Shown here: positions 3,432 through 25,708 of the stretch, one piece after another
How the letters are laid out: every line of letters begins with the position of its first letter
How positions within the stretch are numbered: position 1 is the first letter of the stretch
Assembly (NCBI GenBank): GCA_965214095.1
Contig: CBDCAZ010000001.1
Span: forward strand, 1 to 32,066
Reading direction: 5' to 3'
Length of the DNA stretch: 32,066 nt
From: Candidatus Poribacteria bacterium
Lineage (GTDB): Bacteria; Poribacteria; WGA-4E; WGA-3G
Made by a program: the position numbers and the translations under genes
Notes under the pieces: generated by a model
Told to the model about the DNA's origin: nothing
Seen by the model: the letters and a program-made list of their open reading frames with translations, nothing else
The model's database searches: none

Positions 3432-3704
3432 CCGATCCTTCGGCGCCATTCAAGGTCGGGCGGCACGATGACGTTTCTCTCCTGTTTGCGGCGAGTCGAC
3501 GGCGCGGTGCCTAGCCGAACGGTTCGCGCGCCAGGCATCAGGCCTCTCATCCGAACGATATCAGATCAACAGTATTGTCATGGTCAGGGCGCCAAACGAG
3601 AATGTGGCCAGCCTATCTCGTAGTGTGAACTTGCCACCCACCGTCCCGACAGACCAACGCGGCTGTCGGAACACCGGACGACCGACCAAGGAGACGATGG
3701 CACG

Positions 3705-5402
3705 ATGGAATACATCCCGATACGGGTCAGCGACATTGTGAAACACGTGAACCATGACTGGTATCTTCCGGCAATTCAGCGTGAACTCGAATGGAATACG
3801 GTCAGAATAGAACGTCTCTTCGATTCCATCTTGTCCGATTTCCCCATAGGTTCATTCCTATTTTGGAACTTGGAGGAGAAGAACAAGAGCGAATGGCCTA
3901 TTTATGAATTCATTCGCGACTACGATGAAGACAAGCCTCACAACGTCTTGGCTAACATCCATGGGATTCGGAAGGATCTTACGCTGGTTCTCGATGGGCA
4001 ACAAAGAATTACATCTCTGTATATCGGCCTGATGGGATCTTATCGCTTTTTCTATTATCGTTGGCGTATGACGCGATTATACCTCAATTTGCTCAAGCCA
4101 CCAGTCCCGAATGAAGAAAATCCGGAGGAACTTGCCCACGAGTTCTCGTTTCGCGAGAATGGCCACGCGACCAACGACCTAGAAAAGTTGTGGTATCCAG
4201 TTGGTCGAATACTCGACTTTAACGACGCTGAAGATGCCAAGGCAGATATGAAGCAAACACTGTCCAGATTTCCTGAAGACGCACAGGAAAACGCCAATAA
4301 GCTTATCGGACGACTGCACAATCGTATCCACACCACGTTGATCGGAAACTATTATCTCGAAAAATCCCAAGACTATGACAAGGTTCTACAGATCTTCGTT
4401 CGCTCCAATTCTGCCGGGCAGCCATTGGCGTATTCCGACTTGCTGCTTGCAACGGCAACGGCGAAGTGGGACACCCTTGACGCTCGTAGCGAGATTCACA
4501 ATTTTACCGATTTGCTCAACGAAACCGGTACCGGCTACAAGTTCGGCAAAGATTTTGTGCTAAAGGCCTGCCTCTATCTCTGCGAATCTCTGCCAATACA
4601 GTACAAGGTCAAGAATTTTTCGAAGTCCAACCTCCTGACCATCGAATCCAACTGGGAGTCCATCAAGGATACGCTTGCTGTGACGGTGCGCTTGATTTCC
4701 CGTTTCGGCTTCCAAGCGAAAAACGTCGTGGCACCACTGGCCCTGCTCCCGATTGCCTTTTACCTGCAGAAGCGGGGCGATCCGAACTTCGACAAGTCAT
4801 CGAGCGTCGAAGACGCGGAAGCTCAGATCGCCATTCGAAAATGGTTTGTGTTTGCGACCCTCAAGAATGCATTTGGCGGCTCCTCAGATACGACGTTGAC
4901 ACGTCTTCGCCAGATACTGACGAAAGCTGGTTCGGCATTCCCTGCGGAAGAAATGTACAGATCTCTTCAGATCGAGCCGTCGTTGAGCGACGCGGAAGTG
5001 GATCGGATGTTGGAATATCAATACCAGGGCCGTTACACTAATTTGATTCTGTCGTTGTTGTATCCCGATAGAGACTGGAAAGATGCGGTGTTTCATGAGG
5101 ACCATATATTCCCGCAATCTGAATTCAAGGTAACGTTGTTGAGGGGACGATGTTATGATGATACCAAAATCCAGTCGTATATGTCGCGGTTCAACACGCT
5201 GCCGAACCTTCAGCTTCTGACCGATTCCGAGAATATGTCGAAGGGTGCTACACCTTTCGACAAATGGCTAAAGACCAGGGACGCGAAGTACCGATGTCGC
5301 CATCTAGTCCCGGGTTTGACAGATTATTCTTTCGACAACTTCGAAGAGTTTTTTAACGCCAGACGGCAATTGATAGTGGCGGCACTCAAGGCACTTTCCT
5401 GA
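3705..5402 (+). CDS. DUF262 + C-terminal HNH (DUF1524-like) protein, GmrSD-family putative modification-dependent restriction nuclease
   Basis: LPAIQRE, LFDS..PIGS..W, VLDGQQRITSL and IFVRSNSAG (DUF262/ParB-like NTPase); HEDHIFP...NTLPNLQLL...EN (HNH). Visibly lower GC than the flanks. Confidence 0.88.
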   Translation: MEYIPIRVSDIVKHVNHDWYLPAIQRELEWNTVRIERLFDSILSDFPIGSFLFWNLEEKNKSEWPIYEFIRDYDEDKPHNVLANIHGIRKDLTLVLDGQQRITSLYIGLMGSYRFFYYRWRMTRLYLNLLKPPVPNEENPEELAHEFSFRENGHATNDLEKLWYPVGRILDFNDAEDAKADMKQTLSRFPEDAQENANKLIGRLHNRIHTTLIGNYYLEKSQDYDKVLQIFVRSNSAGQPLAYSDLLLATATAKWDTLDARSEIHNFTDLLNETGTGYKFGKDFVLKACLYLCESLPIQYKVKNFSKSNLLTIESNWESIKDTLAVTVRLISRFGFQAKNVVAPLALLPIAFYLQKRGDPNFDKSSSVEDAEAQIAIRKWFVFATLKNAFGGSSDTTLTRLRQILTKAGSAFPAEEMYRSLQIEPSLSDAEVDRMLEYQYQGRYTNLILSLLYPDRDWKDAVFHEDHIFPQSEFKVTLLRGRCYDDTKIQSYMSRFNTLPNLQLLTDSENMSKGATPFDKWLKTRDAKYRCRHLVPGLTDYSFDNFEEFFNARRQLIVAALKALS

Positions 5403-8058: not shown

Positions 8059-11000
8059 TCAGTATGAGAGGCCGTATCCCCTGGTGAGTTCCTGGCGCCG
8101 CGCGTAGACCTCGCCCATGTGCCGCCAGCATTCCCCGGAGAGGTTCTCGAAGCTCCGGGCGAGGTCGGCGGGCAGGGCCTGTGCCAGCCCGGACAGGGAG
8201 AGCCTGTCGTCGGGATCGATGGCCTCGCGGATATGGTGGCGGAAAGCGGCAAGGGTCTCTTCGGGCCAGGCGCGGTTCCTGCGGGCGAGTTCGACCAGCG
8301 CGTCACGGTCGCGGTCGTCTTCGGGCCTTGTGACGGCGCACATCAGCATGTCGAGGCGGCCGGGGTCGTGGCGCTGGTCGCCGGCGGCGAACGCGCCGGC
8401 GTCCGGCAGTTCGATCCGGCGGGGCCCCGCCTCGGGATCGCGCGCGGCGCGGCGGATCGCCTCGATCTCGGCAACGAGGTCGGCCATGTCGATCCAGCGG
8501 CGGTCGACATGGTCGCTCTGGGTGGGGTTGCCGGAGGCGCGCCAGTTCCGGAAGGTCTTGACGAACTGCTCGGCCCGGACGTCCCACCTGCGGTAATCCG
8601 GATCGACGTCGTTGAGGGCCCGGGGCGGGGGTTCGGGCGCCGGGGGGATGTCGTCTTCGGCCCGGAACAGCCCGAGGGCGCGGCCGATGAGCCCCGGACG
8701 GGCGGCCTCCTCCTCCGGGGCGGGCGGTTCCGGGGCAAGGGCGCGGTCGAGAATGGCGGGATATGTCTCCAGATGGGCCCGGGCCCGCCTGATTGCGTTC
8801 CGGATCGTGTCGCGGACACGGATTTCGCTGTCGATCACGGCCTGGAACTGCTCAAGGTAGCGGCGGTCCCTGTCGGAGAGCCCGGGGGTTGCGAGCAGCC
8901 GCGCGGCCTCGGCGCGCAGCGGCTCGATGCCGGGCTGGTAGATGATGGCGCTCTCGCCGGCGGCGGCGTCGGCCTCGTCAACGGCATCGCGGATGCGCCG
9001 GCAGCCGCGGGCAGCCTCCGCCTCCCGCTGCGCCCCGGCCCTGCCGGCGGCCGCCTTCGCCTCCTCCCGCAGCGTCTGGCCCGCGCCCTCCATGAGCGCC
9101 TCCGCCGCTTCCGCCGCCGCACGCCATGCCGCCGCATCCTGCGGGACGGCCATCCGGATCTGCGCTTCCAGATCGTCCAGCGCCCGCAGCGTGCCTCTTG
9201 TCGTCACCGCCCGTTCCCGGTGCCGCTCCGCCCGGTCGCGCCATTCGGCCGCCGCCCGGGGAGACCCGTCTTCCAGGGCATCCGCGACCGTCCCGGCGAT
9301 GGCGGACGCGCCGCCATGCGCCGACATCCGCTGCTGCCGCAGTTGCCGCCATGCCTGCACATCCGCCACAGTCAGTGGCGCCATCTCCCGCTCCGCTCGC
9401 GCCGCCTCGGAGATCCGGCGCCCGACCAGCCTGTAGATCCAGCGTTGCACCTCCACATCGAGCGCCCGTTGCCGCGCCCGGGCGTCGCGCGCCACCGCCG
9501 CCTCGCCCGCCACCAGCGCCCTGTCGGCCAGAACGCCGAAGGCCATCGCCGCCTCCCGGGCGGCCGCGCCATGGCGCTCTATAGAGGCCGTGTCGATATC
9601 CCTGTCGGAGAGGGCCCCGGCAGGCGCCAGACGCTCCGAGGCCGCGTCCGCCGCCGCCAGCGCCACGTTCAGAATACGGTAGGCCCGAAGCCGCGCCTGC
9701 ATCCCGGATCCGTTCGTCCTCGCCGCCCCGATACCGTCCCCGTCGGGCGCATGGCCGGCGGCAGCCGCCGCTTCCGTGAACGCCTCGGCGACGGCGGCCG
9801 CCGCGTCCCGCACCCGTTCGACCGCTGCCATCCGCGCCCGCAGCGCCTGCCTGTCCTCCAGCCCGCCCGCCGGCAGGGCGGCGAAGGCGCGTTCGGCCTC
9901 CTCCGCACGGGCCCGCGCCGACGAAAGCGCCGCCTCCGCCTCCACCAGCCGGTGCCGGGCCTCCCCCTGGTACCGCCGATCCGCCCGCAGGCCGTCCAGG
10001 AACTGAGCCGCTATCTCCGCGCGGATGGTGGATTTCGCCGGGACCGCCGTGTCCACCTCGCCGATCGCCTCCAGCGCCGTCAGCCGCGCGCCCGTGTTCG
10101 CCTCCAGCGTCTCCACAAGCTGCTCGCGATTGTCGGTCAGCACCACAGCCTGCTCGCGCGCCCGGCCCAGCTGCACATAGAGCGTCTGCTGGTTCACCAG
10201 CGGCCCGGCGCCCGTGTCCAGCACCGCGATCACCCGGTCATGCGTCTGCCCCTGCGCCGCATGCACCGTGGAGGCATAGGCGTAGGCCAGGTGGCGCAGC
10301 TGCGGGTCGTTCCGCGCGAAGCTCAACTCCCGCCCGTCGGGGAGCCCCATCCACAGCACCCCCTTGCCGATCTCCAGCACGTCGGCCCGGTCGCCATTGG
10401 CAAGGCCGCGCTCCCGGTCGTTGCGGGTCCAGCGCAGCCGCTCGCCTTCCCTGATCCGCAGCGTCTTCGCCTCGAACAGGTCGAGCCGGTAGCGCAGCTC
10501 GCTGCCCGGCTTCAGGTGGCGCGGCCGGCCGTCATCATGGGCAAGCCTGACACGGTCCTCCTCCACCGCCATCACCGTGCAGGCATCGTCCCTGGCGATG
10601 CGGTAATGCTTCATGTCGCGGTTGAAGAGCGCGATATCGCCCTCGCGCCAGTTGCGGGGATCGCCGGTCTCGGCGCGTGTGAGGTTGAGCGGCACCAGGG
10701 TCTCGATCTCCATGGCGCGCCCGCGCAAGGCTCCCTCGGCCTCAAGACCCTCGCGCACCGCCTCCTCGACCCCGGCCCTGAGCGCGCGCGTCGGCACCAG
10801 CAGCGCCGTTGCCGCCCGCGCCTCCGCCGAGAGCCTGAGCCAGAGACCGGCCGCCACACCCGCGATCTCCTCGGCCGGGACTTCCTGCAGATTGCCCCCC
10901 AGATGCGCGAGCGCCGCGCCCGGCTCGCCCTCGATCATCTCCGCGACCGCCGCCCTCAGGTCCGGATCGCGCTGCCGGCGCAACTCGTCCATCTCCACAA

Positions 11001-12783
11001 CGCCCATGCCCGCCTGCTGCATCTGCCGGAAGGGCTGGCCCGCCTCCACGCCCCGCAACTGCCGCTTGTCGCCCACAAGCACGAGGCGCGCCACCTCCAG
11101 ACGCTCCGCAATCCTGAGCAGCGACCGCGCCTGCGCCGTGCCCGCCAGCGACATCTCGTCGACTACCACCACCGCGCCGCCATAGCGTTCTTTCAGGCGA
11201 GCGAGCGTCTCGGCATCCGCGACCCCGTCCGCCACCTCCCGGCAGCGTGTGAGGAACCATTGCAGCGTCCGGCAGGCGAGGCCCGTCTCGCGCGAGAGCG
11301 TCCGCGCCGCAGACGCCGACGGCGCCAGGCCCAGCACAGGCCGCCCGCCCAGGCACGACACGGCCCGGCGCAGCATGACCGTCTTGCCGCTGCCCGCATG
11401 GCCCTGTACGCCCAGCACCCGGTCGCGGCTCTCCAGGATCGAGCGCACCGCCTCGCGCTGGCCTTCGCTCAACCCCGCCAGCGCCTCTTCCGGAACGGCA
11501 TGCGCCGCGAGTGGGCGCACCGCGCCGATGCCGGCCTTCATGCGGGCCAGAACCTCGCGCTCGGCCTTCACCGCCCGCGCCGTCGTCCACGCCGCGCCCA
11601 CCCCGCGCCGGATCGCCGGCAGCAGATGCCTGTCACGCTGCAGTTCGGCAAAGGCGCCCTCGATCTCCTCCAGACGGTAAAGCCCCGGCCTGTGCGCCAG
11701 AGCCAGCGCCAGCGCCTCCCTCTCCGGGAACACGCTCGCCCGCTCCTCCAGCTGCTCCAGAACCCGCCAGGCGATCTCCAGCGCCGTCGGCGGCTCCGGG
11801 TGGCGCGCGCCGATCTTCCTGAGCGTCCGCTTGGCGAGACCGCGCTCCTCCGCGAAATCCCGCCACAGCGCCTCCAGCTCCGCACGCCGCGGCTCGTTCT
11901 TGCGCGCCCTTGTGGCCAGCGTCGCCATCTGCGCCGTGCGCGCATCGTAGCGCCAGCCCTTCTCCCGGATGAAGTCGAGGATCTGCCGCCGCCGGCTCGA
12001 GAACGCCTCCAGAGCCGCCCGCGGCCAGCCCGATATCTCGAACCCCGGCACACGCCCGATCATCGACGGCCTGAGCGCGAACCCCGCCTTCCTCAGCCCG
12101 TGCGCCAGTTCGTTGCGGTAGAAGGCCCCGACCAGCTTCTCCGACCGGCGCAGCAGGCCGATCTCGGCACTCCGCCACTGTCCGCCATCGCGGGTCATGT
12201 TGGCGATCACGCAATGGGTGTGAAGCTGCGGGTCGTTGTTGCGGCTGGTGATGTGCCGGAAGGTTGCCGCCACCAGCATGGGTGCGTTCACCTGCACCGA
12301 GCGCCGCTCCTCCGGGCTCCAGCGCCGCGTCCGCAAGAGCCGCGTCTCGATGAACGCCAGCGTCGCGCGCACCGCCGCGTCATGCGCGCGCATCGCCCGC
12401 GCGGAGCCCGGACCGCCGAGCAGCGCCTCCAGCGATACCGACTTCGGCGCCGACAGCGTGATGTCCACACCCGGGCGGTGCTCGTGTTCACCGTCGCGCA
12501 GCCGCCCCAGGCGAATGTCCGTGCCCGGCACATGGCCCTGAAGCACGCGGCGGAACTCTCCCGGCTCCACATGGCCGCTCAGCCCCAGCGCCGCCGCCCC
12601 GCTGCCCCGCCACCGGCTCGCCTTGCGGTGCTCGTCATCGCGGCGGGCGTAATAGTCCTCGCGCTCATTAGCCTGCCCCGGGCTCGATCCGGGGGTCGCC
12701 GGCGCGCCCAGCCCGTGGCCCTCGCGGCGGAAATAATGCACCGTCGAGGAGGCCGAGGTGAGGCTGACCACCGTCGCTACCAT
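8059..12783 (-). CDS. trwC: MOBF conjugative relaxase-helicase (TrwC/TraI family) with long C-terminal extension
   Basis: N-terminal YF...DYY, DITLSAPKSVS, HITSRNNDPQLHTH (HUH), FSSRR; RecD-like helicase motifs GHAGSGKT, VVVDEMS, LVGDKRQL, YASTVHAAQGQT, LYVQLGRAR. Confidence 0.95.
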   Translation of the reverse strand: MVATVVSLTSASSTVHYFRREGHGLGAPATPGSSPGQANEREDYYARRDDEHRKASRWRGSGAAALGLSGHVEPGEFRRVLQGHVPGTDIRLGRLRDGEHEHRPGVDITLSAPKSVSLEALLGGPGSARAMRAHDAAVRATLAFIETRLLRTRRWSPEERRSVQVNAPMLVAATFRHITSRNNDPQLHTHCVIANMTRDGGQWRSAEIGLLRRSEKLVGAFYRNELAHGLRKAGFALRPSMIGRVPGFEISGWPRAALEAFSSRRRQILDFIREKGWRYDARTAQMATLATRARKNEPRRAELEALWRDFAEERGLAKRTLRKIGARHPEPPTALEIAWRVLEQLEERASVFPEREALALALAHRPGLYRLEEIEGAFAELQRDRHLLPAIRRGVGAAWTTARAVKAEREVLARMKAGIGAVRPLAAHAVPEEALAGLSEGQREAVRSILESRDRVLGVQGHAGSGKTVMLRRAVSCLGGRPVLGLAPSASAARTLSRETGLACRTLQWFLTRCREVADGVADAETLARLKERYGGAVVVVDEMSLAGTAQARSLLRIAERLEVARLVLVGDKRQLRGVEAGQPFRQMQQAGMGVVEMDELRRQRDPDLRAAVAEMIEGEPGAALAHLGGNLQEVPAEEIAGVAAGLWLRLSAEARAATALLVPTRALRAGVEEAVREGLEAEGALRGRAMEIETLVPLNLTRAETGDPRNWREGDIALFNRDMKHYRIARDDACTVMAVEEDRVRLAHDDGRPRHLKPGSELRYRLDLFEAKTLRIREGERLRWTRNDRERGLANGDRADVLEIGKGVLWMGLPDGRELSFARNDPQLRHLAYAYASTVHAAQGQTHDRVIAVLDTGAGPLVNQQTLYVQLGRAREQAVVLTDNREQLVETLEANTGARLTALEAIGEVDTAVPAKSTIRAEIAAQFLDGLRADRRYQGEARHRLVEAEAALSSARARAEEAERAFAALPAGGLEDRQALRARMAAVERVRDAAAAVAEAFTEAAAAAGHAPDGDGIGAARTNGSGMQARLRAYRILNVALAAADAASERLAPAGALSDRDIDTASIERHGAAAREAAMAFGVLADRALVAGEAAVARDARARQRALDVEVQRWIYRLVGRRISEAARAEREMAPLTVADVQAWRQLRQQRMSAHGGASAIAGTVADALEDGSPRAAAEWRDRAERHRERAVTTRGTLRALDDLEAQIRMAVPQDAAAWRAAAEAAEALMEGAGQTLREEAKAAAGRAGAQREAEAARGCRRIRDAVDEADAAAGESAIIYQPGIEPLRAEAARLLATPGLSDRDRRYLEQFQAVIDSEIRVRDTIRNAIRRARAHLETYPAILDRALAPEPPAPEEEAARPGLIGRALGLFRAEDDIPPAPEPPPRALNDVDPDYRRWDVRAEQFVKTFRNWRASGNPTQSDHVDRRWIDMADLVAEIEAIRRAARDPEAGPRRIELPDAGAFAAGDQRHDPGRLDMLMCAVTRPEDDRDRDALVELARRNRAWPEETLAAFRHHIREAIDPDDRLSLSGLAQALPADLARSFENLSGECWRHMGEVYARRQELTRGYGLSY

Positions 12784-13076
12784 GAGCAGAGCCTAGCCCA
12801 TTGCGCAGGGCGGCGCATGCACGGACCTGCTCCCGATACCGGTCGGTATTGTCGGGACTTCGCGTTCGGGGGCCACACGAACGTCAGGGCATCGGGAGGA
12901 TTCCGTTGGCGGCGGAATCATGGCAGGATGGCGCACATTCACGGATCGCGTTCCGGGCCAGACCGGTATCGGAGGGACAGGCCATGACACCAATGCTTGC
13001 GAAGGTCGGGACGGCAGCATCGGCCCTGTTCATGGGCCGGCTGGCGGTTTCGGGGTTGACAGGCGGAGACACCGAC

Positions 13077-16000
13077 ATGGCTACAATTAAGCCGAGCCGA
13101 GCCGAGCCGAGCCGAGCCGAGCCGCTCTTCCTGCGTCTTCATGGTGGCGCCGCCTAGGGCGCTCCGCCTCCCGGCCTGAGCTTTCTTCCGCTAGCGGGCG
13201 TTCCGACAGCCGCCGGCCCGCTTCCTCCTCCGACAGCTTCGCTCCCTCTCCCACCCGCGCCGCCGCGGGCGTTGGTCCTACCGTTCGCCGTCCCCGGCGC
13301 GGCCTGCTGCCCGCCCTGTTTGTCCTGCCGCTGCTCCTCGGGCTGGCAACCGAAGCCGCAGCGCAGAGCCAGAGCGTGCCGACGCTCAAGGTCGAGATAC
13401 CGACCGTCACCGAAGGCGAGACCGGCACCATCAAGCTCACCCTGAGCCAGGAGTCGAGCCAGTCGATAGATACTCAGGTTAGCGCCTTCTCTATAGTTTG
13501 CGGCAGTGGCGTTACCTGCCCGCAAGGCACGACCGCAGCGGGCGCCAGCGACTATTCCTTAACCAGCGTGACGATAACCTTCGCTCCTAGCGAGACGACC
13601 AAGACCGTCTCCTTCACCACGACCGACGACAGCACGTCCGAGTCGACCGAGGTGTTCCAGCTTGCGGTTACCGGTCTCGCTGCCTCCGAAGCCACCATCG
13701 ACCCCAGCACGCCGGCAGACGGCCAAGGTTTTGGACAACCATACTGGTTAGTCCGCATCCAGGACAACGACAATCCGGGGAACCCGAACGTCACGATTAC
13801 CCCCGGCACGTCGCCGGTGACGGAGGGGACGGCTGCGACCTTCACGGTGACGGCGACGCCGGCGCCCACTGCGGCGACGACGGTCTCGGTGGCGGTGACG
13901 GAGGAGACGAGCGGCAGCCAGGATTTCGTGGCTTCGAGCAACGAGACCACGCACACGGTGACCATTCCGGCGTCGGGAAGCCCGAACGCGGGCACGGCCA
14001 CGCTCACCATCCCGACGGTGGGCGACACCAACCAGGAGCCGCATGGCGCGGTGACGGCGGCGGTGAACACCGGCACCGGCTATACGGTGGGCAATCCGTC
14101 ATCGGCGACCGTGACGGTGCTGGACGACGACGGCACGTCGGCGCCTCCGGAGGTGTCAGTGCGGTTGATGACCGGCGAGGGCGAGAACCGCAACTCCGAC
14201 GGCGAGGTGGAGAAGCCCGAGTCCGACGGCACGGTGTCGTTCCCTCTATCGCTGGACGCGCAACCGTCGGCGGCGCTGACAGTGTGCGTCCGAGTGACCG
14301 AGTCGGGCGATGTCGACCGGGTCGCATTGGCCGATGAAGGTATCAAGACGGTGAGTTTCAACTCCGGCGTGCAGACGGGGTCAATCGACGTGGCGTGGAC
14401 CGACACAGATGCGGACGACCTGGACAGCGTCATCACCGTTACGGCAGTCCCGTCCAACACCGTGGGCTGCAGCAGCACGGACGTGTACACGGTGTCGAGC
14501 ACCACCGGCTCAGACAAGGTGAAGGTCTCGGATGACGAAGTGACCGCATTGTCGTTGGCTTCTTCGGACACGGAGATGGGTGAAGGCGACGCTTCGAACA
14601 CGGCGGTGATAACGGTGTCTCTGGGTCGTGCGCTGATCAGCGGTGAGTCGGTGGTGGCGCCGATCACGCTCGCTACCGACAACGGCGCACGACTGCCCGG
14701 CCACGCGACACCGGACTTTGCGGTGGCCGCAATGGGCACCGGCGTGGCGCTGAGCAACGCGACGTCCGCGACGCCCCGACTGACGTTCACCGGCTCCGAC
14801 TCAAGCACCGTGCAGGAAGCGACGGTGACGCTGACTCCAGTGGCGAACCGGGACGACGGTGACACGGACAATGAGACGATCACCGCAACGCTTTCCCTGC
14901 TGACCGGCACGGGTTCGGGCACTGTGGTGACCGGCGGCGGCGTGGCAGTCGTACAGGCATCTTCGGTGGCGACCCTGACGCTGGAGGACGACGAGGCCGC
15001 GCCGCCGGCGTGCCCTGCCCAGAACAACAGCCTCAGCGTTGGCAGCATTCGCATTCTCGAAAACGGCGAAACGACCTATTGCGTGCGGCTTCCCACCGCG
15101 CCTTCCGGTGGCAACACCACCGTCACCATCGGCAAGGCGGGCAGATATCAGGGGGCCGCGAACGCAAGCACAACAACACTCACCTTCACGGCATCGAACT
15201 ACATGAACCCGCAGCCGGTAACGGTGACCGGCGTGGACCAGCCGAACCTCCATCTCAACCGCACACTGTCATTGACCCACGCGGCCAACGGCGGCGGCTA
15301 CTCGAACCAGGGACTGGGCTGGGTTTCGGTGACGGTGGACGACGCGCCCGAGCTTGAGGTGTTTGATCTGGCGGTAATGAACGCCAATGACTACGCTGCC
15401 AAACAGCGCCCGAACACCGTCAAGGCGACGCGGGGGTTCAGGTATTTCCAGAATGACATGGTGCCAATTCTGCCGCTGCGTTACCTGCTGCGCCTGTCGA
15501 ACCGCCCGGCGACCGGCGAAACGGTGACGGTGACGGCAACATCGAGCGACTTCGCCAAGTTCGGCCTGTCTCGGACCCCGGGCGGCACGCCGCAGCCGTC
15601 GCTGACGGTGACCTTCGAGGACCGCGATGCCGACCGGGTCTGTTTCAATGGGGGTCACGGCTCTCCTGATGGAGCTAACACGCCGAACCCGGACATGTCC
15701 TGGGCGTGCAATCGCCGGATCTGGGTCATCAGCACGCAGAATGACAAAGCGACCTACCGGAAGGGCTGTGCCGACATCACCCACACGGCCTCGGGCGGCG
15801 GCCTGCGCGGCACGGCTATCGGGACGATCCGCGCCCACGCCGTTGCTGCCGGCAACCACCGTGCCCCCTCCAACGCCCCGGGCCGCGGATGCGCCCTCAT
15901 CACCAGCGAACTGCGCGGCCGCTCCGCACCCGCCCTTGCCGCCCCGGCGCCCACCGAGGCAGTCTCCAACCTGCAGGTGACGGCGGTGGACGACACCAGC

Positions 16001-19000
16001 GCCAGCGTCACCTGGGACGCGGTGGAGCATGCCACCTCCTATGACGTGTCGTGGAGCGCCGAGAGCAGCGACGCGCTGAACGCTTCCGCCGGTGACTTGC
16101 CCGGTGTGACGGGCACCACGACCACCATCGACCACGGCGCCCCGGTGCCGATGACGCTGACGGTCACGGTCACGCCGGAATATGTCGACAAGAACGGCGA
16201 CACACAGCAGCTGGCGAGCCTCGCCGGCACGGCAACGCTGGCGGTGGGGCCGGGCAGCGACGCGCTGAGCGCCAGTGCCGAGAGCACTGACAGCCAGACA
16301 CCGGCCTGCGTCTCCGACGCCCTGCTGGCCGAAGCCCAGCTGGCTGCGAGCGAGACCTGGCGGACTTCGGGCCATGTCGAGCGCTGGAGCCGGGTGCTTG
16401 CCGCCTTCGGGGAGAGCAACGCCTGGAGCAACAACCCGATGACCGTCGCGGAGGCGCAGGCGCAGGCGGATCGCGGCCTGAAGCGCTGGGCGCCGGTAGC
16501 GCCGGCGCTGGAATGCCTGGAGAAGAAGCCGGCGCAGGCGGAGGCGCAAGCAGAGGCGCAACAGGCGGTTCCCGCGATCACCGTGACCGCCGGAGCGGGG
16601 GTGACGGAAGGCACGGCGGCGGGCTTCACGCTCAAGGCCGACCCGGTGCCGGCGGAAGAGCTCGCGGTGACGGTGACGGTCGCAGAGACCGGCGCCATCG
16701 CCGACGCCTCGGCGCTGGGCGAGCGCATTGTGACGATCCCGGCCGGGAAGGCGGAGGCGGCCTTCATGGTGGCGACGCTGGCCGACGAGGCCGACGAGCC
16801 GGCAGGCGCTGTGGTGGCGACGGTGAGCGACGGCGCCGGCTACACGGTGGACGATGAGGGCAAGAGCGCAAGCGTGGCGGTGGCGGACGACGACGCCACA
16901 GGGGTGGTGCTGACAGCGCCGGCGGGCGACCTGCCCGAGGCCTCGGGTAGCAAGACGCTGACGCTGACGCTCGGGCGCGCGCTGGTCGAGGGCGAGAGCC
17001 TCGCGGTGCCGCTGGCCTTTGCCGGCACGGCGACGCTCGGGACCGACTATACGCTTGCCGCGCCGGAGACGGCGCCCGCGGGCGTGACATATGCCAACCT
17101 TGCGGGAACCGATCCCAAGAGCCCGCCGACGGTGACCTTCGCCGGCGCGGCGGGGCGCAATTCGGCGACCGTGGCGACGCTGGTGCTGGCGACGGCCCCG
17201 ACCTTCTCGGTCGGCGACGAGACCGCCAATGAGGATGTCGGGCTGATGTATTTCACGGTGAGGCTCGACCGGGCCGTGAAGCGGACGGTGAAGGTGACCC
17301 TCACGGCGCGCGAGGCGAGCCCGGTCTCGGCCCGGTATGGCGAGGACTATTACTGGTGGTGGCCGGACGGGCTCGCGCTCACCTTCCATCCGGGCCAGAC
17401 CGAGAAGAAGATGTGGGTCTATGTCTACAACGACAACCACGACGAGGACCCGGAGACCTTCGAGGTGGCGCTGTCGCGGCCGACGGGGGGTGCGGTGATC
17501 GGCGACGGTGTTGCGGTGGGCACGATCGTCAACAACGACCCGATGCCGGCGGCGTGGCTGGCGCGGTTCGGTCGCACGGCGGCGGAGCAGGCTCTGGACG
17601 GCATTGCCGGGCGCATTGCGGCCTCGCGCACTGCCGGGATGCAGGGCTCGATCGCCGGGCAGGCGCTGAACCTCGATCCCGGATCCACCGGATCGAAGTC
17701 CGGGGGTGGGTCCGATCAGTCGGGCGCCGCGTCCGGCAATGACCTGCTGGCGCAGTCCGATGTCGCGCGCGCTTTCGGCGCTTCCACCGGCCATTTCGGC
17801 ACCAGTGGAACCGGCCATGACGCCTATGGCTTCGGCTTCGGCCAGGATCGTTTCGGCAGTAACGGCGCGCAGGCATACTCCATGACGGCGCGCGAGGCGC
17901 TGCTCGGCAGCAGCTTCACGGCAACGGGTGAGAAGGACGGCACGGGCGGCAGCCTGGCCTTCTGGGGCCGGGCGGCGCAGTCGAGCTTCGACGGAAGGGA
18001 GGGCGCCTTCTCGCTCGACGGCGAGGCGACCACGGCGATGCTGGGCGCCGACTATGCGCGCGGCAACTGGCTGCTCGGCATGGCGCTGATGCAGAGCAGC
18101 GGCGAGGGCGGTTACCGGGATACGAAGCCTGAATCCCGCGCCGTGTCGCAGATCTGCGCGGATGCCGAAAACGGCACCGAAAACGGCGGTTCGCAACCGG
18201 TGACCCATCTGTGCAACGGCGCTGTGCGGGCTGGCAATGGCGAGGTCGAGGCGACGCTGACGGCGGCGGTGCCCTATGCCGCATTGCAGGCGTCCGAGCG
18301 GATGAAGCTCTGGGGCGCGCTCGGCCATGGCACCGGCGAGGTGACGCTCAGGCCGGAGACGTCGGAGACGAGCAGGCCGCTCACGGCGGACATCTCCTGG
18401 ACGATGGCGGCGATGGGCCTGCGCGGCGATGTGGTCGCGCCGCAGGGCAGCGGTCCGGCGCTGGCGGTGACCTCGGATGCGCTCTGGGCGCGGACCAGCT
18501 CGGACAAGACGCATGAGCTGGCGGCGTCCGATTCCGACGTGACGCGCTTGCGGCTCGGTCTGGAGGGAAGCTGGAAGGTAGCCCTGGAGGGTAACGGCAG
18601 TGTCACGCCCAAGCTGGAAATAGGCGCGCGCCATGACGGCGGCGATGCGGAGACCGGCTTCGGGGTGGAGCTTGGCGGCGGGCTGGCCTGGATCGACCCG
18701 ACGCTTGGCCTGTCGTTCGACCTGTCGGGCCGCACGCTGGTCGCGCATGGCTCGGACGATCTGGAGGACCGGGGCTTTGCCGCCTCGCTCGCCTTCGATC
18801 CCGACCCGGCGACGAAGCGCGGTCCGTCGCTCACCCTCGCCCAGGACTGGGGCGGACAGGCCAAAGGCGGCCTCGACGCGCTGTTCACGCCGGAGACGCT
18901 CGACCGGCGCGGCGGCAGCGGCGCGGCCACCGCCCGCTGGCGGGCCGAGGCGGCATATGGCTTCCCGGCCTTCTCGGGGCGCTTCACCGGCAGCCCGCAT

Positions 19001-19168
19001 ATGGGGCTGGGGCTCGCCACCGGCGCACGCGACTACAGCATCGGCTGGAGACTGACGCCCTCGAAGAATGCGCCTGATGTCTCTTTCGGCATCCGGGCAA
19101 CCCGCAGGGAAAGCGACGCGGCCGCACCGGAGCATACCCTCGGGCTCGAAATCAACACGCGGTGGTGA
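13077..19168 (+). CDS. Large secreted/outer-membrane adhesin-like protein (Calx-beta/Ig-like repeats, FN3-like domain, C-terminal autotransporter-like beta-barrel); frameshifted at the (AGCCG)7 tract
   Basis: ORF 13376..19168 has VTEG...TVTVLDDD Calx-beta-type repeats, an FN3-like NLQVTAV..SVTWDAVEHATSYDVSW segment, and an amphipathic beta C-terminus ending in Trp. The frame stays open back to 13091 and encodes a signal peptide (RRPRRGLLPALFVLPLLLGLATEAAA/QS), but the ATGs with an RBS (13077, 12984) are in another frame. Confidence 0.85.
13090..13124 (+). repeat. Pentanucleotide microsatellite (AGCCG)7, putative phase-variation tract
   Basis: Seven perfect AGCCG units starting 13 nt after the first base of ATG 13077. 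Confidence 0.97.
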
Positions 19169-20055: not shown

Positions 20056-20804
20056 TCGCTCGAAACGGCGCGCATCAGCTCTCCGGTACCTCTCCAGCGT
20101 TCCACGAACCGCTCGATCCTGCATTCCATTTCAGGGTCCGGATTGATGACAAGGAACGTCCGATTGCTCCACCGCCGCCAGTACCAGGCAAGGGCGTAGC
20201 CCTGAATATGTGACATCCACTCGTTGATCTCCGCGATATGGCCCCCCTTCCGCCTTCCATTGTGGTGATAGACGATGGCGCATCGGCCTGCCGCGAGCTG
20301 CATCACCTCGGAGACCGGGATCCGTTTCGCACTCTCCTTTCTTCGGGGGTTGAGCCGTTCGTCCGTGCAGAGACCGTTGTCCGGGTCGACGAAAACGAGG
20401 TCGCAGGCGTAGAGCCGATCCAGCACACCGTCGAACCACTGTCGCCGCCAATTCTCGCGCTCGCGAACCGGCACCCGGGCATCGATCGGTTCCCTGGCAA
20501 ACGCGGCATCGACCGGTTTCTCGGCAAACGCGGCATCGCCCAAAATGCCGGACTTCCGTATTGCCGAGACCGATCGCCGGTTTTCGTCAACCAGACCCTT
20601 CAGCGTATCGAACAAATCGCAATCGAGACGCCTCCACTGCCCGGGGTCCCGGAGGTAGCCGGTATGGCGCCCATCGCCCGTGCCGGGCTTCTCGGGGTTG
20701 GCGCAGAGATACCACGCGACTCCCAAACGCCGTCCTTCGCCAACCGCCCGAAGCAGCCCGTATTTGGCGAAGTCCCCAATGTCTCCAACATACTTGTCGC
20801 GCAT
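20052..20804 (-). CDS. Conserved hypothetical protein, possible SAM-dependent methyltransferase-like fold
   Basis: MRDKYVGDIGDFAKYGLLR N-terminus and DLVFVDPDNG motif, reminiscent of RlmJ-like GxxxDxxK and hhhDPP patterns. Function is inference. Confidence 0.6.
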   Translation of the reverse strand: MRDKYVGDIGDFAKYGLLRAVGEGRRLGVAWYLCANPEKPGTGDGRHTGYLRDPGQWRRLDCDLFDTLKGLVDENRRSVSAIRKSGILGDAAFAEKPVDAAFAREPIDARVPVRERENWRRQWFDGVLDRLYACDLVFVDPDNGLCTDERLNPRRKESAKRIPVSEVMQLAAGRCAIVYHHNGRRKGGHIAEINEWMSHIQGYALAWYWRRWSNRTFLVINPDPEMECRIERFVERWRGTGELMRAVSSE

Positions 20805-20927: not shown

Positions 20928-21923
20928 CTATTCCCGGCCAGCCTCCGGGAGTCGAACCTTCTCGACCAGGAAGCGTTTGATCCGGTCGAGTACGGCATCA
21001 AGCTTATCGCCACCTGCATTAACCTTGTGCAAATCGCTCAGAGCGTCGACCGCTTCCCGTTCGTTGAGGCTCGGGAAATGCTCCGCGAAGGTTGCTGGGC
21101 TGACTTCAAAATACAACTGGCCGCCGTTGTCGCCGGCCGAGGGGTACGCGTAGATCAGCATCTTCGTGCCTTTGTCCGGCGGCGCGATCGTTACCGATAA
21201 CTTGTTAGGCTTTACCCGGAGACCAGCCGCTTCCGCGATGCTCACAAAGCGGTCGAACTGCTCGCCCACATCCGCGTCTACGGCCCGGCGACGGACCGCT
21301 TCGACTGAGAATTGGCGAGGGGGAGATGATGGCCTGGTCGGTTCGTCGACCACCTCACGGATCAACAGCTGCGGGCCGCCATCCAACTCGAACACCTCGA
21401 AGCTGACGACACCGATCGGGACAGCGAAGCGGCCGAGAAACTCGTTCATTCGCTCCAGGCCGGGGTGGATCCCGGCACCGACAAGCAGCACCGCAATCTC
21501 GCGCCCCTCCTCTTCAGTCCGCAACTGCCGGTTCAGTCTTTCCGACAGTTGTACAGCGTCGCCGAATTTACAGAGGCCGGGTTCCAGCTTCTTCTTGAGT
21601 TCTTCGCCGTCGAGACGCGCAATCGAAGAGGCATAGTAGAGCCCCTGTGTCAGCGCGCCGGAGTCGAGTGTCCCGGATTTGATCTCGATCACCACCCAGC
21701 GATCCTGAGTGTCGATGGCCAGCAAATCGAGGATCCCGTCGTCGATCCTTACCTGCCGGCCGACCAGTGTCAGTCCTTCTCCGATCAGCGTCACATCGTT
21801 CACAATCCAGTCTTCGAGGTGCTTCTCCAGTCCGACGTGGGAGCGCTCGACCTTCCTCGGTGCCGACTGCCGCGCGGCATGCTCGTCGCGCTGTCGGTCT
21901 ATGGTCCACGCCGCCAATTTCAC
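20928..21923 (-). CDS. NucS/EndoMS-like (DUF91) PD-(D/E)XK endonuclease-domain protein
   Basis: LEKHLEDWI...LVGRQV...ILDLLAID...VVIEIKSG...ALTQGLYYA (E-x-K plus QxxxY). GTG start with GAGGGGAGG RBS. Confidence 0.82.
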   Translation of the reverse strand: MKLAAWTIDRQRDEHAARQSAPRKVERSHVGLEKHLEDWIVNDVTLIGEGLTLVGRQVRIDDGILDLLAIDTQDRWVVIEIKSGTLDSGALTQGLYYASSIARLDGEELKKKLEPGLCKFGDAVQLSERLNRQLRTEEEGREIAVLLVGAGIHPGLERMNEFLGRFAVPIGVVSFEVFELDGGPQLLIREVVDEPTRPSSPPRQFSVEAVRRRAVDADVGEQFDRFVSIAEAAGLRVKPNKLSVTIAPPDKGTKMLIYAYPSAGDNGGQLYFEVSPATFAEHFPSLNEREAVDALSDLHKVNAGGDKLDAVLDRIKRFLVEKVRLPEAGRE

Positions 21924-22421
21924 AACCGCAGCCTCCCCTCAACGCTCTTCCGTCGAATACAAACGTTGCAGTACGACTACAACATCCGCTCCACCCTGGT
22001 CGATGCGCAGGCTGTCGCAAGGCAGCATGCGAAGCGTCGGTAGCCCGGGAAGTCCTGCGCAGCGTAGTCCGGCTTCTGTGCTTCCCCGATTTCCTGCTGT
22101 GCCGGGAGGCGAAGGCCAGCCCTGCTTGCTGGCGGGCCGGAACCCGCATTCAATCTCGGCGATACTCCGAGCGGCTCTTCGGGAAGTTGCCATGCCTCCC
22201 CCTTATCGCACCCATGCAGGACCGGTATGCTGCGCTTGAGGGACCAGTCTGGACTGCCGGGGGCGGGATCTTGCAAGGGGCGTGGCATGAAAAGCGTCGG
22301 GGAACCATGAGCAAGGCCTTTTTCGACGGGCCTGTCGAAAATTCTTCGAAACCCTGCCTCTCGCGCATATCCCTCGTCTGGATGATCGCGCCGTCATGGC
22401 CGGCGACAGAATGGAGCGGGC

Positions 22422-22665
22422 ATGCCGGGTGAGTTCAGGTTCCTCGCGGAGCACCTGCCCCGACCCTGGGAGGCTAGGCGCGGCTTCTATGCAGCGGGAT
22501 TGTTTCTCGGGCATGGCCAGAAGGCCCGGGTCGCGCTCGGAAAGAGCGGCTGGAACCTGATTGCGACGCTCGGGTTCGAGATCGAGCGTCTCGATAACCT
22601 GACGGCCCTGCTACGGAGCTGGCATGGTCGGGGGACCCTGGCCGTGATACTGCACGAGACGGAGG
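22422..22665 (+). pseudogene. Probable gene fragment, possibly from the N-terminal region of a large Type IIG (Eco57I-like) R-M protein
   Basis: LIATLGFEIERLDNLTALLRS...LAVILHETE looks protein-like and recalls that region from memory only; no catalytic motifs present. Confidence 0.3.
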
Positions 22666-22738
22666 TACTAGGCCGGCGAAGCCCGTGTCGAGGATATCCC
22701 TCATCTCGATTGCGACGCTTGATGACGAACCGTGGCGA

Positions 22739-25708
22739 ATGACTGAATCACGTTTGCTGCAGGATACCATATTGCGTGTGCTGGACAGCGCGCCGCGCGG
22801 CCTGACGGTGGAGCGTATCCGCTCCCGGCTTACGACGGCGGGGACCGGCGTTCTCAAACACGAAGTAGTCCGGGCTCTGGCGGATATGAATGCGCGCCAG
22901 TTGGTGCAGCTGTCCGCCGGCCGGCGCTGGCAGGCCCGCGCGCGTCCCGGAAGAGCGGGGGGCGGGCCTTCGCGCACCGCTTCCGTGGACGATTATATCG
23001 TCGCCGTCCATTGTCGGGCGTTTTCCGGCGAGGCATCCGTTCCCGACCCGGAAATGCAAGAAGGCAGAATAGAGCCGAACGCCGGGCTGTTGGCGCGGCT
23101 GCTCCCGTACTACCAGGAAGCCCTGAAGGCCAATGACGGCGGGACACCCAGGGCTTTCACCGGTCAACATGGAGATTCCTTCATGTTGATCGAGCCCGAC
23201 AAACAGTGGTGGCCCACAGCCGAATGCGGGCGCACATTGACGGTCCCGCTTTCCGGAATTTCACCGGGTTTCCTGTCCCTAGTGGCGAAGCGCGACGGCG
23301 AACACCTGCTTCTCGGTTACCCGCTCCACATGATAGCGTCCCGAGACGGTGAAAACAGTGCTTTCGTCCGTCCGGTTTCTGTATTCCGCTGCCGGTACGA
23401 GCATACCGACAGTCACCTCCGCATACATGTTCCGGCTGTGGGTCCGGCCATTGTCCGGGAATGGCTGAACGATCAGGTCAAATTCAAGGGCTGGGAAACG
23501 GCCCGTCTCCTGAACTGGTTGCGCATAGAGGAAGACGACAGGGGAGCCATGCAGGACGACCTGGGCGAGGGTCCTGACTTTCTGGAAATGCCGTCCTTCA
23601 TTCGGCGGTTGGAGGCCGTCGCTGGCAAATTGCTTCAGCAAGAACTTCTTCCTGGCGCGGTTGCCTCTCGTGTCCCGCACAAGGGCGAAACCGGCTACTA
23701 CAACGGTCTAGCCCTGTTCGTGGAAGCCTCGGGAATGTACACACGTTCGGCGATCCGGGACTATGACGAACTCTGCCGACTGAGACCGGAGACGCTTGCG
23801 TCCACGGCACTTGGCCCCCTGTTCGGCTCGCCCGTGTCTCATCTCTCGACCCCGCCGCTCATGCACCCCTTCCCGTTGGGCGAAGCGCAATTGCTGGCAG
23901 CGCGAACTGCCCTGACGGGTCCCCTCAGCGTTGTCACCGGCCCGCCGGGAACGGGCAAATCGCAGGTCATAGCCGCCATCATGCTCAGCGCGGCGGCAAG
24001 TGGCCGATCGGTGCTGCTGGCGGCCCGCCTGCACCGCGCCATTGACGCCGTTCAGGAGCGCCTGGAAGCCTTGGCCGGAGACCGCGCGGTGCTCGTGCGC
24101 GCGAATGAACAGGACGGGTTTGCGAGGTTCACATTCGCCGACGCACTTCAGGCCCTGCTTGTTCGGGCTGGCGACGCCGATGCCGCGGCACATTTTGACC
24201 GGATGATGCCGATACTTTCGGAAGCGGACTCGCATCGTTGGGCGCTTCTGGAGAAATGGCGGAGCCTGAAGGCGCTGGGGGAAGAGCATGGCGCCCTGCT
24301 TGCCGAGGTCGAGAAGGTCGTGGTTGAGCGGAGGAAGTTCGCGAGTGCTGACCGGCCTCCCGGCACCACGGTCCGCGAGCCTGGCACCATCAAACGCTGG
24401 CTGTTGAAGCTGGCGCGCCTTCTTGGTCTGCTTGACCGTCCCCTCCGAACATCCTTGGGCTCGGAGTTTCGTCATGCGCATTTCGATCGGGAAGAGACGC
24501 GGCTGAAGGCGCGCCTGCGCGACAATGAGAACGCCATCCGCTCGCTGCAGGCCGAGCTGGACGACCAGACGGATACGCCCGTCGGTCTGGGGGAGAAGAT
24601 AGAGAAACTGAGTGCGGATCTGCTGCCGCGCCTACTCTCCCGGCTCGACGGCGTCGAGCAGAGCGACCGGCAGGCGTTGAGCGCCATTGCCGGCGACGCA
24701 GCCGTTCTGGTCCGTCACGGCGGTGAGGCGGAATCCCATGCCCTTGTTCTGAAACACATGCCCCTGTGGGCCGTGACCACGCTGGCTGCCGGTAGCAGGA
24801 TTCCTCTTGAGCCAAGGTTGTTCGACTATGTTGTGTTCGACGAGGCGGCCGCGACGGATATCGCTTCAGCGATCCCGCTTCTGTTCAGGGCCAAGGCGGC
24901 GGTTGTTGTCGGCGACCCGATGCAGCTCGGATTGATCTCCAGAATGGATCCCCGCGAGGAGGGGCGGATCTTGAGCCTGTTCAACTTGAAAAGGCCTGGT
25001 ATCGGCGGCTTTCTGCAAAGCCGGACCAGCCTCTTCCAATTGGCGGCATCGGCTGTCGACGAGCCCCCGATGCTGTTGAACGAACATTATCGATGCCATC
25101 CCGACATAGCCGCGTATTTCAACGAAGCCTTTTACGGCAACCGGCTGGCCGCCCTGACCGACACAAGCCGGTTGCGTGTCCCGCAAGGCTTCAGGCCGGG
25201 GCTCCACTGGACCGATGTCGAGGGACCCGTATCTTCGGGGCGTGCTCTCGGAATGGCCGGGTCCGCCTATTCCGACCCAGAGGCCGAAGCTGTCGTTCGA
25301 CAGCTCGGAGAGCTTCGCGAGCGCGAATTCGAAGGGTCGGTCGGCGTCGTGACCTTCTTCGCGCCTCAAGCCAAGCGCATCAACGAACTCGCGGCCCGGG
25401 AACTGGGCTCCGCCGCGTTGGACAAGCTGCAGGTCAAGGTGTTTACCGCCAACAGGTTCCAGGGAGACGAACGGGACGTGATGCTCCTGTCGTTGTGCTT
25501 GGCTGCCGACATGCCGCCCGGGGCGCGGAACTTCCTGAAGAAGGAAAAGCGCCTGCTGAATGTCGCTGTCAGCCGGGCACGGGCGGTCTGCCACATCTTC
25601 GGCAACAGGACCCATGCGGCGCAGTGCGGCATTGGGGACAACGGGCCGCAAGATCCGGCAAGCTCAAGAGGCGTATCGAAAGAACGCGGCACTGGTTACC
25701 GCACTTGA
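22739..25708 (+). CDS. SF1 helicase, UPF1/DNA2-like (AAA_11/AAA_12), with N-terminal wHTH; C-terminus possibly truncated
   Basis: TGPPGTGKSQ, FDEAA, VGDPMQL, EHYRCHPDI, FQGDERD, LNVAVSRAR; coiled-coil insert between motifs I and II. ATG 22739 preferred over GTG 22685. Confidence 0.92.
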   Translation: MTESRLLQDTILRVLDSAPRGLTVERIRSRLTTAGTGVLKHEVVRALADMNARQLVQLSAGRRWQARARPGRAGGGPSRTASVDDYIVAVHCRAFSGEASVPDPEMQEGRIEPNAGLLARLLPYYQEALKANDGGTPRAFTGQHGDSFMLIEPDKQWWPTAECGRTLTVPLSGISPGFLSLVAKRDGEHLLLGYPLHMIASRDGENSAFVRPVSVFRCRYEHTDSHLRIHVPAVGPAIVREWLNDQVKFKGWETARLLNWLRIEEDDRGAMQDDLGEGPDFLEMPSFIRRLEAVAGKLLQQELLPGAVASRVPHKGETGYYNGLALFVEASGMYTRSAIRDYDELCRLRPETLASTALGPLFGSPVSHLSTPPLMHPFPLGEAQLLAARTALTGPLSVVTGPPGTGKSQVIAAIMLSAAASGRSVLLAARLHRAIDAVQERLEALAGDRAVLVRANEQDGFARFTFADALQALLVRAGDADAAAHFDRMMPILSEADSHRWALLEKWRSLKALGEEHGALLAEVEKVVVERRKFASADRPPGTTVREPGTIKRWLLKLARLLGLLDRPLRTSLGSEFRHAHFDREETRLKARLRDNENAIRSLQAELDDQTDTPVGLGEKIEKLSADLLPRLLSRLDGVEQSDRQALSAIAGDAAVLVRHGGEAESHALVLKHMPLWAVTTLAAGSRIPLEPRLFDYVVFDEAAATDIASAIPLLFRAKAAVVVGDPMQLGLISRMDPREEGRILSLFNLKRPGIGGFLQSRTSLFQLAASAVDEPPMLLNEHYRCHPDIAAYFNEAFYGNRLAALTDTSRLRVPQGFRPGLHWTDVEGPVSSGRALGMAGSAYSDPEAEAVVRQLGELREREFEGSVGVVTFFAPQAKRINELAARELGSAALDKLQVKVFTANRFQGDERDVMLLSLCLAADMPPGARNFLKKEKRLLNVAVSRARAVCHIFGNRTHAAQCGIGDNGPQDPASSRGVSKERGTGYRT

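Follow-up and report, generated by a model that had tools for sequence, protein, structure and literature searches.

How can a gene for a giant surface protein be expressed when its signal peptide lies in a reading frame that holds no start codon? The question is raised by a locus on contig CBDCAZ010000001.1 (here C2) of assembly GCA_965214095.1, a Candidatus Poribacteria bacterium; the whole 32,066-bp contig was analysed and is called the window below. The database entry for the protein (P0004, 1930 aa) begins at GTG 13376, downstream of a sequence that looks like a Sec signal peptide, and upstream of both lies a perfect tract of seven AGCCG units. The tract is probably the slippage element of a translational phase-variation cassette, in which the gene would be OFF at seven units. 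This reading draws on the following features of the window.

12971–12976, forward strand: Shine–Dalgarno (SD) sequence GGAGGG, 7 nt 5′ of ATG 12984 (from the sequence; relatives have GGAGA 8 nt before the homologous ATG).
12984–13089, forward strand: coding part of an N-terminal peptide (N-peptide), 35 codons reading MTPMLAKVGTAASALFMGRLAVSGLTGGDTDMATI followed by K, from the likely true start to the repeat (open reading frame (ORF); the database proteins P0123, P0124 and P0125 have the same peptide at 81–87% identity).
13056–13087, forward strand: TTGACA (13056–13061) and TACAAT (13082–13087), 20 nt apart, inside the N-peptide frame (from the sequence).
13065–13079, forward strand: GGAG (13065–13068) and a second in-frame ATG at 13077, 8 nt apart (from the sequence and ORFs).
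13088–13090, forward strand: TAA closing the gene frame just 5′ of the repeat (from the sequence).
13090–13124, forward strand: putative slippage tract (AGCCG)7, read as the cyclic peptide PSRAE (Tandem Repeats Finder and sequence).
13125–13285, forward strand: Arg/Ser/Pro-rich leader in the gene frame, 45% C and 6% A, conserved with relatives.
13155–13157, forward strand: TAG ending the 57-aa OFF product of the 7-unit allele (ORF and cassette comparison; all cassettes but L050, 16 of 17, keep a TAA/TAG at this place in this frame).
13177–13179, forward strand: TGA closing the third frame, which would end the 8-unit allele (sequence and cassette comparison).
13286–13363, forward strand: signal-peptide core, composed of RRPRRG, the hydrophobic LLPALFVLPLLLGL and ATEAAA, with cleavage expected before the Q at 13364 (by eye).
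13376–19168, forward strand: annotated 1930-aa ORF with a GTG start and no signal peptide; Calx-beta domain, weak fn3 match and C-terminal barrel (ORF and Pfam).

Tandem Repeats Finder reports the tract at 13090–13124 with a period of 5, 7.0 copies, 100% matches and a score of 70, and (AGCCG)n encodes the cyclic peptide PSRAE in any frame. ATG 12984 and ATG 13077 lie in a common frame; it gives ...MATIKPSRAEPSRAEPLFLRLHGGAA, runs across the tract and ends at TAG 13155–13157. The gene frame is open from 13091 to the TGA at 19166–19168 and holds no ATG, GTG or TTG before GTG 13376. Because codons of the ATG frame start at positions with a remainder of 0 on division by 3 and those of the gene frame at a remainder of 2, 6 or 9 units join the two frames; 7 units lead to the stop TAG 13155 and 8 units to the stop TGA 13177. 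As the body bearing the signal peptide has no start codon of its own, the gene should be OFF at seven units. Judged by eye, RRPRRG-LLPALFVLPLLLGL-ATEAAA with the following Q (13286–13366) appears a typical Sec signal peptide, with an n-h-c pattern and an AXA site.

Much of this arrangement had been proposed in a preliminary description made from the sequence alone. The tract is where that description placed it; the two ATGs do share a frame ending at 13157; the adhesin frame is indeed closed by TAA 13088 and then open through the signal peptide without a start codon; and the annotated GTG 13376 start does deprive the protein of its signal peptide, P0004 beginning 3′ of it. Fusion of the ATG frame to the gene at 6 or 9 units, likewise claimed there, is borne out by the frame arithmetic and has counterparts in P0124, which is in frame at 6, and in P0123 and P0125, in frame at 9. 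The choice of ATG 13077 as the favoured start did not hold, although the shared frame of the two ATGs did: the homologous start is ATG 12984, which is likely the start codon.

Under the proposed mechanism, translation would start at SD-ATG 12984 and read about 35 codons, after which (AGCCG)n would be translated as PSRAE repeats forming part of a long, positively charged n-region. With n a multiple of 3 (6, 9 and so on), reading would continue through the positively charged leader of about 55 codons, and the ribosome would then reach the hydrophobic core and AXA site of the Sec signal peptide and, behind it, the Calx-beta and C-terminal barrel protein. The in-frame protein would pass out of the cytoplasm, lose its signal peptide behind AXA and be held in the outer membrane by its barrel. 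At 7 units the ribosome would stop at TAG 13155 after 57 residues, and gain or loss of units by slipped-strand mispairing would toggle the gene. From the sequences we infer that the tract changes length at a high rate in the population, and also that a protein whose hydrophobic core lies some 85–125 residues from its N-terminus can be exported. Six in-frame alleles found in nature begin their hydrophobic core at residue 84–127, and the part before it has a net charge of +5 to +12, a range that would fit a cytoplasmic n-region.

Close homologues of the window protein (65–96% identity over the first 500 residues) occur in metagenome-assembled genomes (MAGs) titled Alphaproteobacteria, Thalassobaculaceae and Dehalococcoidia; several of them bear sponge-associated taxon names. 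At four alphaproteobacterial loci (L005, L006, L009 and L017), an octamer array, (ATCGCCGG)n, replaces (AGCCG)7 at the tract position, and DNA homology with the window begins at 13123–13130, which is the 3′ end of the tract. Sixteen octamer cassettes from three MAGs were read, namely these four, L048–L057, L177 and L178, giving 17 cassettes with the window. Their arrays hold 6–29 units. The genomes G001, G002 and G003 contain seven, at least eight and one cassette, respectively, with many different genes downstream; TATAAT-CGCCGG junctions number seven in G001 and six in G002, two further junctions in G002 are of the TATAATGCCGG type, and G003 has one array. Among 63 genomes of the family of G002, only G002 itself has the octamer array. 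The layout is an SD-ATG, about 35–65 codons, the repeat, an Arg-rich leader and the signal peptide. In 14 of the 16 octamer cassettes, a conserved C-rich leader (about 120–210 nt) comes after the array, then the signal-peptide core and then mature proteins unlike one another; in L177 and L178 the array abuts the hydrophobic core directly, with no long leader.

In all 17 cassettes the signal-peptide frame is open back into the array, and it alone connects the repeat with the signal peptide. In the 15 long-leader cassettes, TAA/TAG and TGA close the remaining frames 28–64 nt 3′ of the array, with the exception of L050, which has no TAA/TAG. On the 5′ side, the TAA of TATAAT closes the gene frame in five octamer cassettes, the same role that TAA 13088 has in the window. 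In 12 of the 17 cassettes, the window included, the hydrophobic core has no ATG, GTG or TTG before it or at its beginning, and in L178 the array abuts the core (...RRIAGS|ILFTALLLVSSPADA), so that translation must come through the array. A conserved GGAGA-N8-ATG is found 105–136 nt 5′ of the array in 12 of the 16 octamer cassettes and opens a peptide of 35–43 codons with the consensus MT[IL]FNE.R..IR.L...LT.AE...II; in L050 a GTG takes the position of the conserved ATG, and in L006 and L017 a different start, AGGAGG-ATG, opens a longer peptide. About 130 nt upstream of the conserved ATG are also conserved and include a promoter-like TTGCCT-N17-TACGGT, and the distance from the ATG to TTGACA is 72, 87, 93 or 96 nt. 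The leader has six resolved indel events (−3, −3, −48, −3, −30 and −6), all of them multiples of 3. The ORF from the conserved ATG enters the gene in three cassettes (L052 with 9 units, L009 with 7 and L178 with 16) and ends at a trap stop in the other 14. By frame state, three of the 17 are ON, nine are in the first OFF frame and five in the second, a distribution for which equal thirds are not rejected (chi-square p ~0.19).

The pentamer, too, recurs behind homologous N-peptides. A search with the window's 57-aa OFF product retrieved five database proteins (P0122–P0126), which are other genes behind the same cassette and not alleles of the window gene. P0123 (1858 aa) and P0125 (1856 aa) have the same N-peptide (81–83% identity) and PSRAE repeats that correspond to 9 units, all pentamer counts for these proteins being deduced from the peptides; both are in frame and continue through leader and signal peptide into a large protein ending in a like barrel. 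P0124 follows the same course with a window-type N-peptide and a pentamer repeat of 6 units, again in frame; P0122 is not in frame and ends at the TGA position; and P0126, with 28 units, is in the same OFF frame as the window. Further, P0279 shares 76% identity over 328 residues with the window's conceptual sequence from leader through signal peptide into adhesin, and is in frame behind a 7-residue periodic repeat, probably a 7-nt unit equal to the octamer minus one base. Many more in-frame proteins have (IAGSPDRR)n N-termini. One gene is in frame in two genomes, as P0282 with a 9-unit array (its DNA is L052) and as P0276 with a repeat about twice as long, seen as peptide only. Collectively, unit counts among homologous cassettes are 6, 7, 9, 9 and 28 for pentamers and 6–29 for octamers.

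In Dehalococcoidia, the loci L007 and L008 have C14 and C20 before the signal peptide, exact numbers that carry little weight because homopolymer lengths are error-prone in assemblies. Their genomes, G066 and G067 (loci L179–L192), each hold about 9–10 or more C/G runs of 12–36 nt. Among the 15 C/G tracts read, 13 lie just 5′ of a signal-peptide core whose ORF stays open over more than 500 codons; nine of these 13 genes have their own ATG before the core and four have none. In L186, a C19 tract is followed by a leader homologous to the alphaproteobacterial leader. The units found at this site (1, 5, 8 and probably 7 nt) include no multiple of 3.

The slipped-strand OFF switch of the preliminary description is thus supported by comparison, the octamer cassettes having the same one-frame-in-three design. 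The tract is not the lone oddity it had been taken for; instead, it is one member of a modular 5′ cassette family. The search of the window's own assembly for further (AGCCG)n tracts, which that description had suggested, yielded none of at least four units besides 13090–13124 in 5,245,196 bp and four contigs. A metagenome scan for (AGCCG)5 returned at least 119 stretches, and none of the 80 loci compared with blastn shares the upstream part, leader or gene of the window. The (AGCCG)5–19 arrays in L058–L137 lie on many unrelated metagenome contigs, of 27–76% GC and from many habitats.

A translated switch has a number of observations against it. Among assembled contigs from four runs of one study, none bridges the tract, and depth is zero at 13097–13123, where the repeat is masked. 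The leader is unlike ordinary coding DNA, with a GC content at codon positions 1, 2 and 3 of 0.65, 0.84 and 0.67 vs 0.57, 0.56 and 0.82 in the body. The ratio of non-synonymous to synonymous polymorphism (pN/pS) is 0.6–1.6 in the N-peptide and 0.57–1.01 in the leader, a test of little power, since the signal peptide itself gives 0.44–1.08. TTGACA and TATAAT are invariant in all 16 octamer cassettes although they impose rare codons (in the window's genes TTG is used at 4–6%, ACA at 6–10% and ATA at 6–14%); the invariance points to a role at the DNA level, perhaps an internal promoter that would place the array in the 5′ untranslated region. A GTG or TTG stands close to the signal peptide in five of the 17 cassettes, and among database homologues several (MWRGLL..., MQRGLL...) likewise have a start codon beside theirs. 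L057 and L177 have a 4-nt insertion just 5′ of the array, so not every indel keeps the frame. We know of no Sec signal peptide with an n-region of 85–125 residues. Finally, three in-frame cassettes among 17 is the chance expectation. A gene caller would extend about a third of ORFs through a stop-free array anyway, and in-frame ORFs alone are therefore no proof of translation. The missing alternative starts and the frame-keeping indels are the stronger arguments for it.

Part of this evidence could be read as placing the repeat in a 5′ untranslated leader, where it would tune transcription or mRNA fate as a 'volume control' (cf. hmwA); TTGACA...TA(T/C)AAT would then be the promoter, transcripts would start in the array and translation would begin beside the signal peptide. 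The invariant hexamers with their rare codons suit this account, as do the AT-rich stretch upstream in many cassettes, the C-rich, A-poor leader without coding-like GC at third positions, a pN/pS near 1, and the GTG or TTG beside the signal peptide in L005, L009, L017 and L049. For hmwA, moreover, PMC3309571 describes homologous adhesin genes whose upstream repeats differ in unit length. We nevertheless regard this account as unlikely. The hexamers are 23 or 27 nt apart in the octamer cassettes, and TTGACA is 20 nt from TACAAT in the window, distances outside the sigma-70 range, and a scan of 12600–13500 for sigma-70 promoters (16–18 nt spacing) and terminators found none. Usable starts 3′ of the array are missing from twelve of the 17 cassettes, among them the window's, and L178 has no room for one; in L009 and L017, no SD motif lies 5′ of the GTG. 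The frame-keeping leader indels, the conserved stops in the two other frames and the conserved SD-ATG upstream all argue against an untranslated repeat. TTGACA...TATAAT had also been considered as the promoter of the gene and was dropped as the principal reading, the hexamers being inside the conserved SD-ATG frame and their spacing non-canonical. A palindrome often lies between TTGACA and TATAAT in the cassettes.

Nothing at all would switch if the gene were a decaying pseudogene without a start codon, or if the count of seven were an assembly or consensus error for six. The window does have CCC at the site that is GTG in L009 and L017 and CTG in L005 and L006, its contig, with 64% GC, stands alone in an assembly of 41% GC, and the contigs from the four runs break at the tract. 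However, the 5.8-kb gene body of the window is intact, with 89–91% DNA identity to full-length relatives, and the upstream SD-ATG frame and both trap stops are intact as well. Further, the assembled sequence is out of frame in 14 of the 17 cassettes (the window's and 13 from other MAG records), which makes OFF the usual state. Decay or miscounting is therefore a highly improbable explanation. Finally, the 7-unit allele might still yield protein through slippage of RNA polymerase or the ribosome on the repeat, giving a low constitutive level instead of OFF. All that favours this idea is that repeats can promote slippage; to our knowledge, GC-rich 5-nt and 8-nt units are not slippery motifs, and the unit type differs between relatives while the design is unchanged. 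We give it almost no credence. The phase-variable, translated repeat is thus retained as the probable reading of the locus.

The nearest known parallel is opa of Neisseria. In PMC3960869, the opa genes are described as a family of many members, all with arrays of their own, in which CTCTT coding repeats lie in the region of the leader peptide and slippage of the 5-nt unit shifts the frame. In both systems, a 5-nt repeat follows the start codon and precedes the mature protein, being part of the sequence that codes for the signal peptide, with frame-shifting by slipped strands (here as the proposed mechanism), and both involve many genes, there being 7–8 or more cassettes per relative genome here, most of them out of frame. 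As in Opa-type switches, the repeat of the window is perfect, has a unit that is not a multiple of 3, lies inside a predicted ORF 3′ of its start and allows a full-length product in one phase only. In contrast to opa, the unit of the window is GC-rich and would encode a hydrophilic n-region and not the hydrophobic core, with a further leader of about 55 codons behind it; it is replaced in relatives by 8-nt, 1-nt and probably 7-nt repeats; the proteins are Calx-beta proteins of 1000–2100 aa as opposed to 8-stranded Opa barrels; and the hosts are uncultured marine MAG lineages, not human pathogens.

A difference in unit at the same site is known from Haemophilus influenzae hmw1A/hmw2A, for which PMC3309571 gives an octanucleotide, GCATCATC, in 12–15 copies in biogroup aegyptius vs 7-bp units in other strains. 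The likeness extends to the gene, a large adhesin; however, those repeats lie in a putative promoter region and act on transcription, whereas the evidence here favours a translated repeat. A parallel of another kind concerns the length of the N-terminus. Large autotransporters and TpsA proteins can carry an extended signal peptide region (ESPR), an extra charged, weakly hydrophobic N-terminal segment before the n-h-c signal peptide. The N-peptide likewise has a weak hydrophobic stretch, e.g. VRALCAALAAIA, but the extension here is 85–125 residues long and holds a variable repeat. The ESPR Pfam model was not matched by the in-frame N-termini of L052 and L009 or by the N-peptide of the window (0 families at E ≤ 10).

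The protein behind the proposed switch may well be a surface protein. Its Calx-beta domain (PF03160) is well above cut-off in Pfam (E 1.5e-18, 67 bits vs 27), and an fn3 match is weak. At the C-terminus lies one further feature.

18020–19165, forward strand: C-terminal outer-membrane beta-barrel domain, autotransporter-like (PF03797, AlphaFold2 (AF2) model and Foldseek).

The last 382 residues match PF03797 marginally (E 4.8e-6, 27 bits vs a cut-off of 26), and no PF03797 match was obtained with the whole protein or with a 522-aa C-terminal piece as query (the latter against Pfam and NCBIfam). A first AF2 model of the C-terminus, built from 6 sequences, was set aside, its mean predicted local distance difference test score (pLDDT) being 31; a model of the 382 residues from 29 sequences reached a pLDDT of 75.7 and has about 17 strands. 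The top Foldseek matches of the C-terminal model in the Protein Data Bank (PDB) are all outer-membrane barrels, with query-normalised template modelling (TM) scores of 0.23–0.46; the beta-domains of BrkA, NalP, EspP and Hbp are among the matches, with modest TM-scores, and the best matches are larger barrels. A PDB sequence search with the C-terminal 442 aa gave a single weak, irrelevant match. The barrel domain has 6436 representatives at E ≤ 0.001 in a library clustered at 50%, and in nearly all of the 150 representatives listed, proteins of 272–7300 residues, it lies at the extreme C-terminus. The Pfam autotransporter model barely detects this domain. A giant surface protein with an autotransporter-like anchor is a reasonable reading. 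It resembles type Va autotransporters in its putative N-terminal signal peptide, long repetitive passenger and predicted C-terminal outer-membrane barrel ending in ...RW, and differs from them in the marginal PF03797 match, in having about 17 modelled strands over 382 residues vs 12, and in that the best Foldseek matches are larger barrels.

The window protein is without 477 nt (159 aa) that are present in its closest relatives (~17195 in the window vs 7877–8354 in L005). This gap, which accounts for 1930–2026 aa vs about 2111 aa, suggests that a repeated domain has been lost. Dehalococcoidia-type homologues (P0010, P0012, P0020, P0021 and similar) have about 1120–1160 aa and end where the alphaproteobacterial proteins go on to the barrel; exchange between phyla thus seems to have involved the passenger part but not its outer-membrane anchor.

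The contig on which the gene lies has a composition of its own. C2 is 64.1% GC, whereas the 5.2-Mb main contig C1 is 41.1%, so the host of C2 is uncertain, and the cassette and adhesin gene are found nowhere else in their own assembly. C2 may come from another organism in the sample, or may be a fragment of a foreign plasmid or of an integrative and conjugative element. The preliminary description had placed the locus on a mobile element, a claim that stands in part: a relaxase gene lies divergently 200 bp upstream, but circularity and transfer genes were not found.

8059–12783, reverse strand: divergent TrwC/MobF relaxase-helicase gene, 1574 aa (PF08751, E 2.3e-73; AAA_30, E 2.9e-46).

No terminal overlap of the contig was found; the window ORFs scanned, a part of all ORFs, include no type IV secretion system, coupling protein or integrase; and a search of a plasmid collection gave only two 70-nt relaxase matches. 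Candidate defence genes at 3624–5402, 20928–21938 (reverse strand), 22598–25708 and 26039–28303 form a defence-rich stretch near the relaxase, and the candidate identities are HEC-05 / GmrSD-like (E 1e-183), PDC-S11 with a NucS-like nuclease domain, a Mokosh-like helicase and PDC-M26A. Nearer the tract, an Rfam scan of 12700–13500 at E ≤ 1 gave no match, and the inverted repeats in 12700–13100 amount to one imperfect palindrome at 12805–12830. Two 27-nt tandem repeats, at 14173–14230 (2.1 copies, inside the adhesin gene) and at 20478–20538 (2.3 copies), are frame-neutral because their unit length is a multiple of 3.

Taken beyond the window, the cassette may be a modular, horizontally exchanged, phase-variable secretion leader, composed of a promoter, an SD-ATG, the N-peptide, a hypermutable and interchangeable repeat (1, 5, 8 and probably 7 nt), a charged leader and a signal-peptide core. 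Bacteria of at least two phyla, uncultured and co-occurring (Alphaproteobacteria and Dehalococcoidia MAGs), would have it in common, and it would head about 7–13 genes for giant surface or secreted proteins per genome, a contingency-locus repertoire of marine, probably host-associated symbionts. We give this broader proposal about an even chance. Repeat-driven ON/OFF switching of surface proteins is textbook knowledge for a handful of human pathogens, in which it is read as immune escape and adhesion variation. The mechanism is known; what would be new here is a modular cassette before many giant genes, its interchangeable unit, a very long translated leader, the setting in uncultured marine MAGs and a leader common to different phyla. 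A full-text literature search on sponge symbionts and phase variation, with supplements outside its reach, found nothing relevant, and no paper was found that combines sponge, symbiont, Calx-beta and autotransporter.

The reusable 5′ module heads many giant Calx-beta, leucine-rich repeat and immunoglobulin-like proteins in GC-rich marine MAG lineages. If the proposed switch is real, a Sec signal would work with an n-region of about 100 residues, and the many 'start-less' or 'signal-peptide-less' giant genes of such MAGs (P0008, P0039, P0046, P0063 and the window's gene as annotated) would be explained as OFF alleles, with no need to invoke annotation errors or pseudogenes. Symbiont populations would then present a randomly varying surface to an invertebrate host, to phages or to grazers.

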